Part shown: one piece after another, positions 6,577 through 26,111 of the stretch
Numbering within the stretch: the stretch's first letter is position 1
Layout: each line of letters begins with the position of its first letter
DNA from: Calothrix sp. NIES-2100
GTDB lineage: Bacteria; Cyanobacteriota; Cyanobacteriia; Cyanobacteriales; Nostocaceae
Direction: 5' to 3'
Length of the DNA stretch: 31,141 nucleotides
NCBI GenBank assembly: GCA_002368195.1
Contig: AP018178.1
Span: 5,050,145 to 5,081,285, forward strand
The notes under the pieces: generated by a model
What the model was told of the DNA's origin: nothing
The model's input: only the letters and a program-made list of their open reading frames with translations
The model's database searches: none
Program-made: the position numbers and the translations under genes

Positions 6577-6824
6577 TACCGCAATTCAATAGTCTGTAGG
6601 GGCGGGTTCTGTGAGATATGTATCGAGAAAACAGATATGTTGGTTAAACACACCCTTACTTTAGGAGATTTTCAGAAAAAATTGTCCCAATTGTGATTGT
6701 GCCCTTACACTGCGCACCCTTAGACACCGCACCCTTCGACTTCGCTCAGGGTGCGGTGTTGGCTGAGCGAAGTCGAAGGCTAAGGGAACTCCAAAAAATA
6801 AATTATGCCAAATTGTAGGGGCGG

Positions 6825-16859: not shown

Positions 16860-17392
16860 GGGTTATTCTCCCGAATTTTTGTGATTGTTTTGAGAACTTA
16901 GACTTCTTTTGCTGCTAGTAGTCCACCACAATAATTTCTTAGTCAGCGCTTCAGTCCTTATTTCCAGGACACTGCTGACTAGGTATCTGTAAATAATTAA
17001 TGACATAAACCACTAGCCAATGTTGTTGATGAATGCGATGATTTAGCGATCGCACCCCAAACTCTATGGTGAACTGGGAAAATCGGTGTCGGATATTTTT
17101 CTGGCAATTTTGATTATTCTAGGAGTCACACACCCACTTATGATGCGCTTTTCTACTAGTTGCATGGTTGTACTGTAGATATCGACTCTTGGTCATATAT
17201 TAAACACCAGCACTTGTAAGTACATGAAACCTTAACATTACCGCAAAATTTTGCTGATATTTGCGTATATATTAACTATTTTAGTATTTTACCGTATTTT
17301 CACTCAGGCGATCGCTTCGCTTTCGTCAAAAGTCAAAATTAATAAATATTTACTTTTGACTTTTGACTGAAGCGAAGGGTTTAAGAGCTAGC

Positions 17393-18164: not shown

Positions 18165-18863
18165 CTAACGTTGAATAGTCTGCGCAGATTGATTAAATAA
18201 TAAATCCCGTGACTTTTCAATATCTAATGCCTGATTTTTAAACTCTTCTGCCTTTTCGTAAGCGCGAATTGTTGCCGGACGTGCCTTAATTGCCTCAAAC
18301 CAACGCTTTAAATTCGGAAAATCTTCTAAGTTTTGGCTTTGGCGTTCATAAGGCACAATCCAGGGATAAGCAGCAATATCAGCAATGGAATAATCGCCAG
18401 CTACAAATTCTCTATCTGCCAATCTTTTGTCTAACACTGCATACAAGCGTCCTGTTTCTTTGACGTAGCGGTTGATAGCATAGTCAATTTTTTCTGGTGC
18501 GTATTGGCTAAAGTGGTGGTTCTGTCCCGCCATTGGCCCTAAACCTCCCATTTGCCAAAATAACCATTGTAAAACTTCAACACGTTTGGGCAAATCTTGG
18601 GGAATTAACTTCCCAGTTTTTTCTGCTAAATACAGCAGAATTGCACCCGATTCAAAAACAGAAATCGGCGCACCGCCATTTGCAGGTTCATTGTCAACAA
18701 TTGCCGGGATACGATTGTTAGGTGAAATATTGAGAAACTCTGGCTTAAATTGGTCGCCAGCACCAATATTTACCGGAATAATATTGTAAGGAAGTCCAAC
18801 TTCTTCCAAGAAAATTGTAATTTTATGACCGTTGGGAGTTGTCCAATAATAAAGGTCAATCAT
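18165..18863 (-). CDS. Nu-class glutathione S-transferase (YfcG-like), copy 2 and paralog of 16197-16859
   Basis: The start is taken at the internal ATG (MIDLYYWTTPNGH...), which has a GGAGA RBS, rather than at the ORF-track start 10 codons upstream. Roughly 95% nt identity to copy 1 over the 3' half. Confidence 0.85.
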   Translation of the reverse strand: MIDLYYWTTPNGHKITIFLEEVGLPYNIIPVNIGAGDQFKPEFLNISPNNRIPAIVDNEPANGGAPISVFESGAILLYLAEKTGKLIPQDLPKRVEVLQWLFWQMGGLGPMAGQNHHFSQYAPEKIDYAINRYVKETGRLYAVLDKRLADREFVAGDYSIADIAAYPWIVPYERQSQNLEDFPNLKRWFEAIKARPATIRAYEKAEEFKNQALDIEKSRDLLFNQSAQTIQR

Positions 18864-18894
18864 GGTGATTTCTCCTGATTTGTCAATAGTCAAT

Positions 18895-18966: not shown

Positions 18967-19656
18967 TTAAAAACGCTCAACCCAAGGGCGCAATTCTACT
19001 TCCCAAGTCCAAGCGCTGCGGGGTTGATTTAAAATGCTGAGATAAGTTTGAGCGATCGCATCCGGATCGAGAGTACTATCAGGGTTATCGGCTGGATCTT
19101 GGCGTTGGGCGGAACGAATAGCACCATCAATTACAAAATGCGCTACATGAATATTCTTAGGTGCTAATTCCCTCGCAATGCTTTGAGCCAAACCCCTGAG
19201 GGCAAATTTACCCATTGCAAACGGTGCAGATTGCGGATAACCCTTAACACTAGCTGAGGCTCCGGTAAAAAATATCGCCCCACCTCCCTGCTGTAACATC
19301 CTTTTAGCGGCAGCCTGGGCAACCAAAAAGCCACCATAGGCAGTGATTTCTAGGGTTTTGGCAACTTCGCTGGGGTCTAGTTCAATTAGCGGCCCCCGGA
19401 CTCGAAAACTGGGATTGTAAACAACAACTGTCGGGTTACCAAGTTTATTTTCGACATCGATAAATAACTGGTTTACCTCCTCTGGTTTTGCCGCATCAGC
19501 AGCGAAGCTAACCGCACCGATTTCACTACTAAGCTGAGTCAGTTTCTCAATGCTACGAGATGCTAAGGCTATTTTCAGTCCTTCCTTGGCAAATAAGCGA
19601 GCGATAGAAGCACTTAATCCATTACCTGCTCCAACTATCAAAGCTGTTTTTGGCAT
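18967..19656 (-). CDS. Short-chain dehydrogenase/reductase (SDR)
   Basis: N-terminal MPKTALIVGAGNGLSASIARLFAKEG Rossmann motif. Length is 229 aa. Confidence 0.85.
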   Translation of the reverse strand: MPKTALIVGAGNGLSASIARLFAKEGLKIALASRSIEKLTQLSSEIGAVSFAADAAKPEEVNQLFIDVENKLGNPTVVVYNPSFRVRGPLIELDPSEVAKTLEITAYGGFLVAQAAAKRMLQQGGGAIFFTGASASVKGYPQSAPFAMGKFALRGLAQSIARELAPKNIHVAHFVIDGAIRSAQRQDPADNPDSTLDPDAIAQTYLSILNQPRSAWTWEVELRPWVERF

Positions 19657-19679: not shown

Positions 19680-20978
19680 CTAGGGATTAATTGTGGCTGA
19701 AGATAAAAGTGAATTACTCTTAGTAGGATTTTGACCAATTCGCAGTACTAAGACTGCTGCTATTAAGCACAAAACACCTGACAAAATAAATGCTTGAACA
19801 TAAGTACCTTGCCAAGTTCTCAGCGCTCCGGCTCCGAAGGCGGCTGTAGCTGCACCGAGTTGATGTCCGGCGACAATCCAGCCGAACATAACGCCGACAT
19901 TCTCTTTGCCGAAGACGTTGGCTACAAGGCGAACTGTCGGCGGTACAGTAGCAATCCAGTCGAGTCCGTAAAAGACGGCAAAGATTGAGAGTCCGTAGAA
20001 TGAGAAGTGAAAACTGAAGGGTAGGAAAATTAGGGATAAACCCCGCAATCCGTAGTACCAGCAGAGTAAGTAGCGATTGTTCCACCTATCAGACAGCCAA
20101 CCGGAGAGAGTTGTCCCAAAAAAATCAAAGATGCCCATAATCGCTAACAGTCCCGCAGCCTTAACTTCAGGGATGCCATGATCAATGCAGGCGGGAATTA
20201 GATGAGTGCCGATAAGTCCGTTAGTACTCGCACCACAGATAAAAAAACTACTAAATAACAACCAAAAGTCACGAGATTTGCAGCCCTGCCAGAGTTTGCT
20301 GAGTGTGGAAGTGATGGAATTTGCCTTTGGCGGTATTAATTCCACAGTTTCGCTATTATCTCCAAAAGCTCGCAAGCCAACTTCCACTGGCCGATCGCGC
20401 ATGAATAAGGCGATCGCCGGAATCACTAAAACTGCAACGCCAGCCAGGGCTAAAGTAGCTGTTCGCCATCCAAATCTCTCCACTATCGACGCCAACATGG
20501 GCAGAAATACTAATTGCCCGGTAGCTGTACTGGCGGTAAGCATCCCCAGAACCAAACCCCGCCGCTCTACAAACCAGCGATTGACAACAACCGCACCTAA
20601 TACTAAGGCGATAACTCCGCTACCACTACCGACAATGATTCCCCACAGCAATACTAACTGCCAGGAAGCTGACATGAAAGTGGTCAAGCCAACGCCAATA
20701 GCGATGAAAGCCAATGCGAATACCATTGTCCGGCGAATACCGATGCGCTCCATGACAGTGGCGGCAAAAGGGCCGATCAATCCATACAGTACTAAGTTGA
20801 TGGAGATTGCTAAGGATATAGTAGCTCTACTCCAGCCAAACTCCTGCTCCAAAGGCACGATGAGAACTCCTGGTGCAGAACGAATCCCGGCGGCTACTAA
20901 TAGAGCTAAAAATGTTAAACCCGCTACGAGCCAGCCATAATGAAGCGAACGACGTGCTAAAAACGAGGCTAAGGACAT
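19680..20978 (-). CDS. MFS transporter
   Basis: 432 aa with about 12 hydrophobic segments and an MFS-like D-R-x-G-R-R region (MERIGIRRT). The stop is 23 nt upstream of the SDR start. Confidence 0.8.
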   Translation of the reverse strand: MSLASFLARRSLHYGWLVAGLTFLALLVAAGIRSAPGVLIVPLEQEFGWSRATISLAISINLVLYGLIGPFAATVMERIGIRRTMVFALAFIAIGVGLTTFMSASWQLVLLWGIIVGSGSGVIALVLGAVVVNRWFVERRGLVLGMLTASTATGQLVFLPMLASIVERFGWRTATLALAGVAVLVIPAIALFMRDRPVEVGLRAFGDNSETVELIPPKANSITSTLSKLWQGCKSRDFWLLFSSFFICGASTNGLIGTHLIPACIDHGIPEVKAAGLLAIMGIFDFFGTTLSGWLSDRWNNRYLLCWYYGLRGLSLIFLPFSFHFSFYGLSIFAVFYGLDWIATVPPTVRLVANVFGKENVGVMFGWIVAGHQLGAATAAFGAGALRTWQGTYVQAFILSGVLCLIAAVLVLRIGQNPTKSNSLLSSATINP

Positions 20979-21080: not shown

Positions 21081-21746
21081 TTACCCCTGATAAGGGTTAC
21101 CAATTCTATCTACAGAAACGTTAGCAGACAAAGGCAAGCGACCGGGATTGAGGCGGGGTTCTGCGGGATAACCAACAGGTACTAAAACTGCGATCGCTAA
21201 ATCTGGATCGTCTGCTGCACCAATCACAGCCTTCACTTGCTCTTCAATCCAACCATTCATAAAGCAGGTGGATAAACCTAAACTTTCGGCTGCAAGTACT
21301 AAATGAGTAGCCGCAATGATTGCATCTTTGATCCCATATTCGCGCCGCTTGTCTGCTAAACCAGCTTGAAATTGGGGTATAGCATTTTTAAAGTAGTTGA
21401 CTGTACCTTCATTCCATGCCCCAGTTTGCAGTGCTTGCTCATAAACCGGTGTTAAGTCTTTTTCTCCCGCATAGGGATCGGCTGCAAATACAAATGTCAC
21501 AGGTGCTTGGACAATTTGTTGTTGATTCCAAGATGCTGCTGACAATGCTGCTTTTTGCGCTTCATCTTGCACCAGGATAATTTGCCAACCTTGCATATTA
21601 AAACTGCTAGGTGCGGCTACGGTTAACTCTACTAGTTGCTTGAGTATTTCCTCTGGTATAGGGTCTGATTTGAAAGTTTTAATGGAACGACGCTGAAGAA
21701 TAGCACTGGGTACATCTAAGACTTGAGTTTGTGCGATCGCACTCAT
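21081..21746 (-). CDS. Nitroreductase-family protein
   Basis: LQRRSIKTFKSDPIP...matches the nitroreductase N-terminal signature. Length is 221 aa. Confidence 0.85.
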   Translation of the reverse strand: MSAIAQTQVLDVPSAILQRRSIKTFKSDPIPEEILKQLVELTVAAPSSFNMQGWQIILVQDEAQKAALSAASWNQQQIVQAPVTFVFAADPYAGEKDLTPVYEQALQTGAWNEGTVNYFKNAIPQFQAGLADKRREYGIKDAIIAATHLVLAAESLGLSTCFMNGWIEEQVKAVIGAADDPDLAIAVLVPVGYPAEPRLNPGRLPLSANVSVDRIGNPYQG

Positions 21747-21851: not shown

Positions 21852-22964
21852 TTATAGACTGACTACTTGTTCCCCAGCAGCCGACCAAAACGGATAGTCT
21901 GTATATCCCTGTTCACCACCACCATAGAAGCTTTCTTGATTTGGCTGATTCAACGGTGCATTTAAAGCCAAGCGTCGGGGTAAATCTGGATTTGCGATAA
22001 ATAGAGTGCCAAAGGCGACTAAATCGGCTTCTTTGTTAGCTAAAACAGCATTGCCCGTTTCATTTGTATAGCCACCACAAACAATCAGTGTACCTGTATA
22101 CCTTTCCCGTAAATAATCGGTTGGTACTGCCGTCCCACCATGCCTGATATCTGCGTCTGTGGACTCAATAATATGCAGATAAGCTAAATTAAATTGATTC
22201 AGTACTTGCGCAGTGTAACCAAAGGTTTCTAAAGGATTAGAGTCACGCATATCGTTAAATGTCCCGCTAGGCGAAAGCCTAACTCCTACCCGTTTACTAT
22301 CCCAAACGCTAGTAACTGCTTCTACAATGTCTAATAAAAATCGCACACGGTTCTCAATACTACCGCCATACTTATCTGTCCGTTGATTCGTACCATCCCG
22401 GAGAAACTGGTCAATTAAATAACCATTAGCTCCGTGAATTTCTATGCCATCAAACCCAGCCGCTAGAGCATTGACTGCCCCTTGACGGTATTGTTCCACA
22501 ATATCTGGAATCTCGGAAGTTTCCAAAGCGCGGGGAGTAACATAAGGTTTGAATCCCTCGAATGTGAATGCTTGACCTTGCGGTGTAATTGCCGAAGGTG
22601 CTACAGGTAAAGCCCCATCTGGTAGCAAGTCAGGGTGAGAAATTCTGCCTACGTGCCACAGTTGCAGAAATATTTTTCCTCCCTGCTGATGCACAGCATC
22701 GGTTACCAACTTCCAACCCGCCACCTGTTCTGGTGAATGAATACCTGGTGTATTCGGATACCCCAGTCCTTGAGGAGAAACTTGAGTTGCTTCTGCAATA
22801 ATTAGTCCAGCCGAAGCGCGTTGCTCATAGTATGTAGCATTGAGCGAATTGGGTACATTTCCCTGACCTGCTCTTTGCCTAGTTAGGGGAGCCATAACTA
22901 TCCGATTGGGTAGTTCTAAATCACCTAATTGGTAAGGAGAGAACAAGTTGATATTAGTATTCAT
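21852..22964 (-). CDS. Old Yellow Enzyme family NADH:flavin oxidoreductase (NemA/OYE-like alkene reductase)
   Basis: LGDLELPNRIVMAPLTR.RA...EATQVSPQG.GYP.TPGI.S.EQ...WK.V.DAVH..GG.IFLQLWH.GR, with a C-terminal GYTDYP region. Length is 370 aa. Confidence 0.9.
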   Translation of the reverse strand: MNTNINLFSPYQLGDLELPNRIVMAPLTRQRAGQGNVPNSLNATYYEQRASAGLIIAEATQVSPQGLGYPNTPGIHSPEQVAGWKLVTDAVHQQGGKIFLQLWHVGRISHPDLLPDGALPVAPSAITPQGQAFTFEGFKPYVTPRALETSEIPDIVEQYRQGAVNALAAGFDGIEIHGANGYLIDQFLRDGTNQRTDKYGGSIENRVRFLLDIVEAVTSVWDSKRVGVRLSPSGTFNDMRDSNPLETFGYTAQVLNQFNLAYLHIIESTDADIRHGGTAVPTDYLRERYTGTLIVCGGYTNETGNAVLANKEADLVAFGTLFIANPDLPRRLALNAPLNQPNQESFYGGGEQGYTDYPFWSAAGEQVVSL

Positions 22965-22987: not shown

Positions 22988-23095
22988 TCGACCGAATTAT
23001 GCCACCATCTAGTCGCAGAGGGACAAGGGGGACAAGGGGAAAAAGGGGAAAAGGGGAAATGACCATTGACAAATGACCAATGCCCACTGACTATT
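22988..23095. repeat. STRR heptamer block (GGGGACAA/GGGGAAAA units, then ATGACCA/TTGACAA units)
   Basis: Visible periodicity. Lies between the OYE and thioredoxin genes. Confidence 0.8.
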
Positions 23096-23157: not shown

Positions 23158-23484
23158 TTAAGAAATATGCTGTGCTAAAGTCTTAGCTAAAGTGGTTTTG
23201 GGCACGGCACCCACGACCGTATCGACTTGTCGGCCTCCCTTAAATACCATTAACGTGGGAATGCTCCGAATACCATAATGGCTGGCGACGGTGGGATTTT
23301 GATCTGTGTTCAGTTTCACTACTTTCACCTGGCCGTCGTATTCGGTAGCTACCTCATCGACAACCGGAGCCACCATTCTGCAAGGGCCACACCAAGGTGC
23401 CCAAAAGTCAACTAGGACTGGAACTTGGCTTTCAAGGACTTCTTGCTTAAATGTAGCTTCTGTGACATTTGTAACGGATGACAT
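23158..23484 (-). CDS. trx: Thioredoxin
   Basis: WCGPC active site. 108 aa, typical of TrxA-like proteins. An AGGAGG RBS sits 6 nt upstream of the ATG on the minus strand. Confidence 0.9.
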
Positions 23485-23508
23485 AATCGTCCTCCTGATT
23501 TAATTCTA

Positions 23509-23529
23509 TTATTCGATAATATCGAATAA
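23509..23529. promoter_or_regulatory. Perfect 10-1-10 palindrome TTATTCGATA-A-TATCGAATAA, centred between the divergent trx and ArsR-family genes. Candidate operator.
   Basis: I checked reverse-complement identity position by position. It lies 25 nt upstream of the trx ATG (minus strand) and 36 nt upstream of the regulator ATG. Confidence 0.55.
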
Positions 23530-23564
23530 GTAAAATATATGCCATTTTATGAGATAGTGCAACT

Positions 23565-23915
23565 ATGAGATTTTTGTATCATCCAGACCGAAAAGATATA
23601 TCGTTAGCGGGAGTGCTATATGCCTTAGGCGATCCGGTAAGGCTAGAAATTGTGCGGCTTTTAGCAACGAAGGGAGAGCAATGCTGTGCGGGGTTTGATT
23701 TTGCGATCGCCAAATCAACCATGTCCAATCATTTTAAGATTTTACGGGAGTCAGGCGTAGTACTGACTCATAAAGAAGGAACACAGCACATCAACCAATT
23801 GCGGCGAGAAGATTTAGAAGCCCTATTCCCTGGATTATTAGATGCAGTCTTACAATCAGCCCAACCATTAAATATTTGTGTTTCGGCTGATAAGCAAACA
23901 GCTTCAAAAGTTTAG
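23565..23915 (+). CDS. ArsR/SmtB-family HTH transcriptional regulator with a Cys-Cys pair in the predicted alpha3 helix
   Basis: LGDPVRLEIVRLLA..GEQCCAGF......STMSNHFKILRESGVV aligns with the ArsR alpha1-alpha4 layout. The CC sits where ArsR carries its C-x-C sensing site. Confidence 0.75.
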   Translation: MRFLYHPDRKDISLAGVLYALGDPVRLEIVRLLATKGEQCCAGFDFAIAKSTMSNHFKILRESGVVLTHKEGTQHINQLRREDLEALFPGLLDAVLQSAQPLNICVSADKQTASKV

Positions 23916-23924
23916 GGCATTGGG

Positions 23925-23968
23925 CATTGGGGACAACTGACAACTGACAACTGACTATTAACCAATTT
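23925..23968. repeat. STRR heptamer block (GGGCATT, then GACAACT units)
   Basis: Visible periodicity. Confidence 0.75.
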
Positions 23969-24895: not shown

Positions 24896-25691
24896 TCTAG
24901 AATACCGACTATTAAGAGAACGGGTGATATTGTTTAGTTGTGTGTGAGGAGCAAGTTAAAACGAAAAACACCCGGGGTGGAAACACGGCAACACTCCCAG
25001 GTGTTTTTTGTTTCATATACACAAAGAATTGCTTTTAGTAAGAATAGTCAAGGCGATCGCTACTTTAGATTTCCCCTAAGAAAAAGCTTGAAATAGTTCT
25101 AAGATCTTTACCTTGAGTGCTGCGATGCCTACCCTTCTCCTGACGGAGACGCTACGCGAACGGGAACGACTTTGTCGAACGGGAACGTCAAAGACGAACG
25201 CCTTTTGTAAAGTCTCACCTGGAATAGGCGGGAAGGGTGGAAGCCCCGTAACTTCAGCTACCTATTCCCCTCACGGGGATGGAAAGGAAATTTTTTCTGG
25301 GAAATGGTGTCTGAAATCATTGCAAAATTTATCTTCTGCACCACCCTTTGTTGCTGCACTGCGATCGCCATCAGGAAGAACAGTTTTACTGAGTGCTTCT
25401 AGTAACAATTTGTAGCGCAACTCTGCTACTCTTTCGCGGCGCTGGACTGCTTTTAATCTTTTTTGAGGCTGACTTTTATTATTAGTCTTAACAGTTATTA
25501 TTCGAGTTTACCGAACCACAGGATTCGAGTAAACCGTAATATAACTTCCTGCGTAATTTAGTGCGGTAATCATGAAATATTCGGTGATAACAACCGAATT
25601 TACACAACTTTATATCATGGTTAATATAAGAATCAAAGCAACAAATTACATCTTGAATCAAGTAGATAAACAGTTAGAGGGTAAACATAAT

Positions 25692-26111
25692 ATGGCTATT
25701 GTACGTTACAATCCTTGGGCTGAAATGACTGCACTACAAAATCAAATTGACAGAATGTTTGAAGATTTACAAGTACCAACATTTAAAACTCCAGCAGCCG
25801 AATTGACTGAAACTGAAGATGCATTGCATCTGAGACTCGAACTTCCTGGTGTTTCAGCAAAAGATGTAGATATTGAAGTTACCGAGAATGCAGTTAAGGT
25901 GATAGCAGAACGCAAATTAGAAAATAAAGAAGGAACTCGTTCTGAGTTTTACTATGGCAAGTTCCAGCGTGTAATTCCTCTAAAAGCCAGAATTCAAAAT
26001 ACTAATGTCACCGCCGAATACAAAGATGGGATTTTGAATCTAACACTGCCTAAATCCGAGCAAGAAAAGAACAAGGTAGTTAAAGTTAATCTGGAACAAC
26101 CTGCTGCTTAA
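25692..26111 (+). CDS. hspA: Small heat-shock protein, Hsp20 / alpha-crystallin family (HspA-like)
   Basis: MAIVRYNPWAEMTALQNQIDRMFEDL...AELTETEDALHLRLELPGV...KDGILNLTLPK shows the alpha-crystallin domain. The start is taken at the internal ATG 40 codons into the ORF (GAGGG RBS), which matches the N-termini of cyanobacterial HspA. Confidence 0.85.
   Translation: MAIVRYNPWAEMTALQNQIDRMFEDLQVPTFKTPAAELTETEDALHLRLELPGVSAKDVDIEVTENAVKVIAERKLENKEGTRSEFYYGKFQRVIPLKARIQNTNVTAEYKDGILNLTLPKSEQEKNKVVKVNLEQPAA

Follow-up and report, generated by a model that had tools for sequence, protein, structure and literature searches.

We analyzed a stretch of 31,141 nucleotides from Calothrix sp. NIES-2100, hereafter referred to as the window, in which a thioredoxin (trx) gene and a gene for an ArsR-family regulator are divergently oriented on either side of an 80-bp spacer, which separates the trx start codon at position 23484 on the minus strand from the regulator start at position 23565 on the plus strand (Table 1). 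The spacer contains the perfect 21-bp palindrome that the first-pass annotation had reported between these two genes. It has the sequence TTATTCGATAATATCGAATAA, with two arms of 10 nt around a single central nucleotide in an inverted repeat without mismatch. The symmetry breaks immediately outside the palindrome, where position 23508 is an A and position 23530 a G, and a looser inverted repeat of 21+1+21 has a complementarity of 76%. Genes for an old yellow enzyme (OYE)-family oxidoreductase, a nitroreductase, a major facilitator superfamily (MFS) transporter, a short-chain dehydrogenase (SDR) and a glutathione S-transferase (GST) are located downstream of trx on the same strand.

Table 1. Genes and sequence elements at the rexT-trxA2 locus, with positions in the window.
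Feature	Position	Strand	Remarks
GST gene	18165-18893	minus	Variable cluster member
SDR gene	18967-19656	minus	Variable cluster member
MFS transporter gene	19680-20978	minus	Variable cluster member
Nitroreductase gene	21081-21746	minus
Terminator-like hairpin and T-run	21083-21097 (21097->21083)	minus	3' end of the nitroreductase gene
OYE-family NADH:flavin oxidoreductase gene	21852-22964	minus	Downstream of trx; Pfam Oxidored_FMN, 1.7e-85
trxA2-type thioredoxin gene	23158-23484	minus	Divergent, predicted target gene; Pfam Thioredoxin, 4e-35
Conserved block TTAATTC	23500-23506		Invariant TTC; outer half-site position of the N15 motif
-10-like hexamer TAGAAT	23503-23508 (23508->23503)	minus	Adjoins the palindrome; putative promoter element of trxA2
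Perfect 10-1-10 palindrome TTATTCGATA-A-TATCGAATAA	23509-23529		Candidate RexT operator; read from the sequence
Conserved core TTCGAT-N3-ATCGAA	23512-23526		Center 23519; variable central triplet of A/T only
TAAAAT (23531-23536) in the conserved block AAAATATA	23531-23539	plus	Candidate rexT -10 element (inferred)
GATAGT	23553-23558	plus	Ends 7 nt ahead of the rexT start (A of ATG); speculative alternative -10 element
Predicted rexT ortholog	23565-23915	plus	116-aa ArsR-SmtB-family redox repressor; PDB match, HTH_20/HTH_5 domains

In a phmmer search of the PDB, the regulator matched RexT (Alr1867) in the entries 7TXM, 7TXN and 7TXO with an E-value of 4e-60 over residues 1-106 and about 10 substitutions (top chain 7TXM_A, 4.1e-60), as compared to only about 3e-4 for the relatives of known structure that scored next, a Listeria ArsR-type protein and SmtB. 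The residues Arg26, Lys50, Cys40-Cys41, Arg61, Thr68, Asn77 and Cys105 are all retained at the RexT positions. In RexT, Arg26 and Lys50 serve in DNA binding, Cys40 and Cys41, a vicinal pair on helix alpha3, form the regulatory disulfide, and Arg61, Thr68 and Asn77 take part in H2O2 activation (PMC8960804). The vicinal cysteines of the window protein are found in the segment GEQCCAGF, and among 30 homologs C41 is invariant and C40 is conserved in at least 90%. No His was identified in residues 78-116, which excludes the alpha5 site DXHX10HXXE/H, and the CXC metal(loid) motif is absent from the regulator, with alpha3 reading EQCCAGF; the definitions of the alpha5 and alpha3/alpha3N metal-site motifs were taken from the structural study of RexT (PMC8960804). 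Since it has neither the alpha5 His/Asp/Glu site nor the CXC motif, the regulator is not expected to sense metals or arsenite. RexT is described in that study as devoid of the metal-binding motifs of the ArsR family, and its EMSA tests included Zn, Cd and arsenite (PMC8960804). Judged by these sequence features, the adjacent ArsR-family gene is the ortholog of rexT, and the signal predicted for its product is oxidation by H2O2 or of thiols via the vicinal Cys40-Cys41 pair, not a metal or arsenite.

We compared the window to orthologous loci obtained from a scan with one genome per species, from which the best 80 of 444 relatives were taken, almost all from named heterocystous (Nostocales) genera. 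Together with Nostoc sp. PCC 7120, four more distant relatives and the window itself, this gave a set of 86 loci. The closest genome match in the species scan was Nostoc sp. T09. The trx gene, whose product is 91% identical to all1866 (TrxA2) of PCC 7120 (tblastn), is divergent from rexT in 82 of 83 loci, the exception being a locus (L079) from a metagenome-assembled genome. The OYE gene is syntenic in most loci and is probably co-transcribed with trx. The set of genes that follows trx (OYE, nitroreductase, SDR, GST, MFS, cupin) is reshuffled from one genus to another. In two loci, L001 (2612-3484) and L029 (2637-3431), an extra short-chain dehydrogenase gene is located on the same strand between trx and OYE, and a gap of about 1 kb between these genes in most other Nostoc loci suggests a similar extra SDR gene. 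A unit of trx, OYE and nitroreductase, comparable to all1866-all1864 in PCC 7120, would be bounded by the hairpin at the 3' end of the nitroreductase gene. The genes all1866-all1865-all1864 have been treated as a tricistronic operon, and the abundance of All1864 and All1865 rises under Cd stress (bioRxiv 10.1101/2022.09.23.509143).

Repeated sequences are also present in and around this cluster. Tandem repeats with units of 7-9 bp, GGGGAAAA and AAATGAC, were identified at positions 23020-23082 between trx and OYE, and tandem GGGCATT and GACAACT units follow directly after the rexT stop codon at positions 23915-23955. We take these tandem repeats flanking the rexT-trx locus to resemble the STRR repeats of heterocystous cyanobacteria. 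Three further inverted repeats in the window are unrelated to the palindrome: one of 28 nt with 89% complementarity at positions 17315-17377, and two perfect ones of 17 nt at positions 2444-2495 (CCCCCTTAAAAAGGGGG) and 6733-6779.

The first-pass annotation had also called the palindrome improbable by chance, which holds for the spacer and is a weaker argument for the window as a whole. First-order Markov resampling of the 31-kb window gave an expectation of 0.22 for perfect palindromes whose arms are 10 nt or longer and whose loop does not exceed 4 nt, and 17% of the resampled windows contained one or more. About five other palindromes of the same class are present in the window, all of them G+C-rich. 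Restricted to the 80-bp spacer, the expectation drops to about 6e-4 (0.22 x 80/31141), and the exact palindrome pattern with at most 3 mismatches was found once in the window, as compared to 0 occurrences in 100 shuffles. A dispersed repeat, which had been named as an observation that would speak against an operator, was not recovered: the pattern has a single copy in 31 kb at up to 3 mismatches and one copy per locus in 83 loci, and the palindrome thereby differs from multi-copy families such as HIP1, STRR and MITE-like repeats. The decisive evidence for the site is its conservation over orthologous loci, not its improbability.

The core TTCGAT-N3-ATCGAA is matched at 12 of 12 positions in 80 of the 86 loci, at 11 positions in five loci and at 10 positions in one. 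The exact core was found in 78 of 83 loci, in each case as a single occurrence in a locus of 5-16 kb and constantly at positions -53 to -39 from the rexT ATG. Among the 54 unique sequences, eight of the 12 core positions are invariant and the information content is 1.5-2.0 bits per position, as compared to a mean of 1.14 bits at the third codon positions of rexT in the same loci, a difference that indicates that the core is under selection. The central triplets (AAT, ATT, TTT, AAA and ATA) consist of A and T in every case. Outside the core, positions -12, -11, -9, +11, +12 and +21 relative to the palindrome center contain about 1 bit or less in the same 54 sequences. The perfect arms are mostly 8 bp long (40 loci); arms of 10 bp were found in 10 loci including the window, and arms of 11-15 bp in seven. 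No symmetric covariation was found at the flanking positions +-8 and +-9 among the 54 unique sequences, where the left arm varies (A or G at -8, T or A at -9) and the right arm has a fixed T and A, so the full 10-bp arms in the window exceed the symmetry that is required by selection. The operator and rexT co-occur strictly across the loci, including the one without trx. In that locus (L079, 3620-4000), rexT and the operator TTATTCGATAAAATCGAATAA are kept, the upstream trx is absent, and the neighbor of rexT is an ORF of 359 aa on the same strand. The retention of the operator at a rexT gene that lacks trx fits with autoregulation of rexT.

The first-pass annotation had proposed a genome-wide search for the palindrome and for half-sites upstream of genes for OYE, nitroreductase and GST, and we searched the window for such additional sites. 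None emerged there: no further operators or half-sites beyond chance were found before the OYE, nitroreductase, MFS, SDR or GST genes, with 12 half-sites observed as compared to 9.8 expected in the whole window. Any response of the downstream genes to RexT would have to result from read-through. Allowing 3 mismatches to the box, there was one match (25500-25516) as compared to 1.7 expected. This match (ATTCGAGTTTACCGAAC) has a TTCG-N7-CGAA skeleton like that of the RexT box, at chance level; within the segment 25500-25540 it is followed by a direct repeat of ATTCGAGTAAACCG at positions 25524-25537, and both are found ahead of an HSP20 gene (25572-26111, plus strand), about 50 bp upstream.

The RexT/trxA2 system was reportedly described by Ehira and Ohmori in 2012. 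Structures of RexT (7TXM, 7TXN and 7TXO) were published by Li et al., 2022 (PMC8960804), who consider a divergent trxA2 beside rexT to be the genomic signature of RexT. In PCC 7120, RexT in its reduced form binds to the DNA between rexT and trxA2 and keeps trxA2 repressed, H2O2 abolishes DNA binding through an intramolecular vicinal disulfide, and TrxA2 re-reduces the oxidized RexT (PMC8960804, PMC5923263, PMC13421787). The rexT-trxA2 spacer of PCC 7120 (BA000019.2) is 77 bp long, CAT-ATTACTTGCCCCTTAATTCGTTTATTCGATATTATCGAATAATAAAAATATAATTTATTTTCAGAGATAATGCAACT-ATG, and holds the sequence TTATTCGATATTATCGAATAA, which is as far from the rexT ATG as the palindrome is in the window. The palindrome of PCC 7120, TTATTCGATA-T-TATCGAATAA, is the version found in the window with the center base complemented, and it is located within two pieces of DNA to which RexT was shown to bind, the EMSA fragment of 325 bp and the anisotropy probe of 35 nt (PMC8960804). 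The window and PCC 7120 are identical at 29 of 35 positions over the probe and at 20 of 21 over the palindrome. This comparison was made with the genome sequence and not with the machine-read text of the probes. The EMSA and anisotropy probes as given in Supplementary Table 1 of PMC8960804 are one base off the PCC 7120 genome (L082, 7930-7975) after ATTCG, an extra G or A that is probably a text-conversion or typing error. RexT orthology, the published binding of RexT to the trxA2 upstream region and the same palindrome in PCC 7120 lend support to the initial proposal that the site is a dimer operator of an ArsR-family protein that controls the neighboring gene.

The RexT motif has been published as ATTCG-N15-CGAAT (PMC8960804; 2026 review PMC13421787), and it differs from the element that is conserved here. 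In PCC 7120, the N15 motif is composed of one arm of the palindrome and an outer ATTCG (in TTAATTCG), and the inner arm at a distance of N7 is skipped. Only 8 of 83 loci, three of them copies of PCC 7120, have an intact N15 motif at the operator, and the motif can therefore not define the RexT system. ATTCG was found as the outer 5-mer in 9 of 86 loci (about 10%), and ATTCT in 62 of 86, including the window, in which positions 23502-23506 read ATTCT and the published motif is broken. From the sequence alignments we infer that the conserved operator element is instead ATTCG-N7-CGAAT of 17 bp. Written as ATTC-N9-GAAT, this inner palindrome spans 17 bp, as compared to 25 bp for the N15 version. 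In SqrR, the operator core ATTC-N8-GAAT is bound with a dimer:DNA ratio of 1:1 at successive major grooves (bioRxiv 10.64898/2026.05.15.721447), and the consensus for NolR is (A/T)TTAG-N9-A(T/A) (PMC8960804). An ArsR-type dimer contacts successive major grooves, and the 17-bp N7 box thus fits the geometry of a single dimer, while the 25-bp N15 motif does not.

It is accordingly improbable, in our assessment, that the functional RexT site is the published motif, with one arm pairing with the outer element at about 23502-23506 and the inner arm being incidental. N15 is the motif stated in the structural study, including its Supplementary Table 1, and repeated in the review (PMC8960804, PMC13421787), and the outer TTAATTC block is well conserved with an invariant TTC; this block is located at positions -19 to -13 from the palindrome center (L001-L083), 9 bp from the left arm. 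However, the complete motif and the outer ATTCG are found in the small minorities of loci given above, the inner arm is essentially invariant, and with a span of 25 bp the half-sites are separated by about two turns of the helix, which is not the case in SqrR and NolR. The published probes carry both candidates and do not discriminate between N7 and N15. On the minus strand, TTAATTC reads GAATTAA and resembles a third half-site; it might be a degenerate half-site, a promoter element or another kind of element.

The candidate promoters were proposed on the basis of conservation only, since a consensus promoter scan gave three matches as compared to 2.0 expected, which is at chance level. Position 2 of the TAGAAT hexamer on the trxA2 side is an A in only 65% of the unique sequences. 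On the rexT side, the AAAATATA block is near-invariant at positions +13 to +20 from the palindrome center, and nAAAAT or AAATAT was found in 50-51 of 54 unique sequences. If TAGAAT and TAAAAT are the -10 elements, the operator would fill the spacer and the -35 zone of both promoters. The palindrome had initially been placed across the -35/-10 space of both promoters, and the part of this claim that stands is that the palindrome covers the spacer and the -35 zone of each of the candidate promoters; the hexamers themselves are candidates suggested by conservation. Most loci have GATAAT where the window has GATAGT, at a fixed position and in 51 of 54 unique sequences, and the sequence in front of the start codon, GAGATAATGCAAnTATG (23553-23564; -12 to -1 from the rexT ATG), is highly conserved with no clear Shine-Dalgarno motif. 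The rexT mRNA may be leaderless, as GATAAT ends 7 nt before the ATG and a clear Shine-Dalgarno motif was not seen; more speculatively, GATAGT could serve as the -10 element that makes it so.

That the palindrome arose by chance or is one copy of a dispersed repeat family has a probability close to nil. Perfect palindromes do arise in resampled windows at the rate given above, and the 17-mer ATTCGAT-N3-ATCGAAT arises by chance in many unrelated metagenome contigs. None of the at least 120 matches listed for this 17-mer in JGI metagenome contigs adjoins a homolog of rexT or trx, and their central triplets show no restriction in composition, which marks the matches listed as chance occurrences. 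By contrast, the palindrome has a single copy at a fixed position in the window and in each locus, and it is conserved in 86 loci from many genera of heterocystous cyanobacteria. The chance or repeat reading is effectively refuted by these conservation data.

It is very unlikely that the site serves mainly another regulator, such as LexA, a FUR-family protein or NtcA, or that it is simply a shared A+T-rich -10 region of two overlapping divergent promoters. An AnLexA box has been predicted upstream of all1866, and the Cd induction of All1864 and All1865 points in the same direction (bioRxiv 10.1101/2022.09.23.509143), but the NtcA motif GTA-N8-TAC is absent from the site, and the site tracks rexT strictly, even where trx is missing. 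The central ATAATAT reads -10-like on both strands, and the promoter scan picked TATTAT at 23521->23516; yet the invariant bases are TTCG and CGAA and the would-be -10 center varies, and overlapping promoter elements agree with, and are to be expected at, the operator of a repressor. There is also only a minute probability that the palindrome functions at the RNA level, as a hairpin in the 5' leader of the trx or rexT transcript, with effects on attenuation, stability or translation. A stem of 9 bp with a loop of 3 nt is possible on either strand, but the folds of -6.9 kcal/mol (z -1.5) and -9.3 kcal/mol (z -1.8) barely beat those of shuffled sequences, and the site may not even be part of a transcript. 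It is the sequence of the arms that is conserved: compensatory changes were not seen, and the variants at +-8 and +-9 break the symmetry. The hairpin reading was rejected, as the folds are weak and not significant.

We consider it highly likely that the palindrome is the operator of RexT, a redox-sensing repressor that belongs to the ArsR-SmtB family and is the product of the neighboring gene. The site, its conservation, the orthology of the regulator and the retention of its functional residues were observed in this analysis, and DNA binding, sensitivity to H2O2 and repression are carried over by analogy from PCC 7120. In the proposed mechanism, a homodimer of reduced RexT would insert its recognition helices into successive major grooves on the two ATTCGAT arms (ATTCG-N7-CGAAT) and block the back-to-back candidate promoters of trxA2 and, probably, of rexT itself. 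Oxidation of Cys41 by H2O2 would lead to the vicinal Cys40-Cys41 disulfide, upon which the oxidized RexT would leave the DNA and allow transcription of trxA2, probably along with the OYE and nitroreductase genes. Newly made TrxA2 would then re-reduce RexT and close the loop.

The RexT/trxA2 system is already known, and the site is a rediscovery with a small refinement of the published motif. A genuine operator can thus be detected by reading the sequence alone, and the site itself brings no new biology. The N7 box matters for the modeling of RexT-DNA complexes, for minimal probes and for RexT-based synthetic promoters in heterocystous cyanobacteria. The conserved linkage of trxA2 to the OYE, nitroreductase and GST genes suggests a regulon beyond the single target given in reviews; if so, RexT would be a general switch for the detoxification of oxidants and electrophiles rather than a regulator of a single thioredoxin gene. 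The joint proposal, that the RexT operator has been mis-assigned and is in reality the 17-bp ATTCGAT-N3-ATCGAAT of the SqrR/BigR type, and that RexT controls the variable trxA2-led cluster (OYE, nitroreductase, SDR, GST, MFS) by read-through from the one promoter under operator control, has in our estimate slightly better than an even chance of being correct.

Compared to PCC 7120, the window has an orthologous regulator, a divergent trx, a spacer of similar length (77-80 bp) and a 10-1-10 palindrome at equal distance from rexT, as well as the Cys40-Cys41 pair, Arg61, Thr68 and Asn77, and OYE and nitroreductase genes downstream. It differs in the center base of the palindrome (A, as compared to T in PCC 7120), in the outer half-site (ATTCT, as compared to ATTCG), and in the downstream cluster, which is longer in the window with the addition of MFS, SDR and GST genes, whereas genes for a PEP-mutase and a peptidase follow in PCC 7120.

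RexT has been reported to form a separate cluster in the ArsR family network (PMC8960804). With the persulfide sensors of the SqrR/BigR type, the predicted system has in common the ArsR-SmtB fold and a thiol-based switch that does not depend on metals. The half-sites are near-identical to those of SqrR (ATTC...GAAT) in a two-fold operator, which in SqrR is bound by one dimer, but the spacing is N9 here and N8 in SqrR. Also, the sensing cysteines of SqrR and BigR are located on alpha2 and alpha5 and the inducers are persulfides, whereas the vicinal pair of the RexT type is located on alpha3 and the inducer is H2O2. In Corynebacterium glutamicum, the ArsR-type regulator CyeR (cited in PMC8960804) is reported to be a Cys-based redox repressor that controls an old yellow enzyme gene, a logic similar to that of the trx-OYE cluster. 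The canonical ArsR/SmtB metalloregulators act on operators with imperfect inverted repeats. SmtB, CzrA and ArsR resemble the predicted system in the winged-helix dimer, the location of the operator over the promoter, derepression by a ligand and frequent autoregulation, but the window protein has neither their alpha5 His/Asp/Glu site nor the CXC motif in alpha3, and it matches SmtB with an E-value of only 3e-4.
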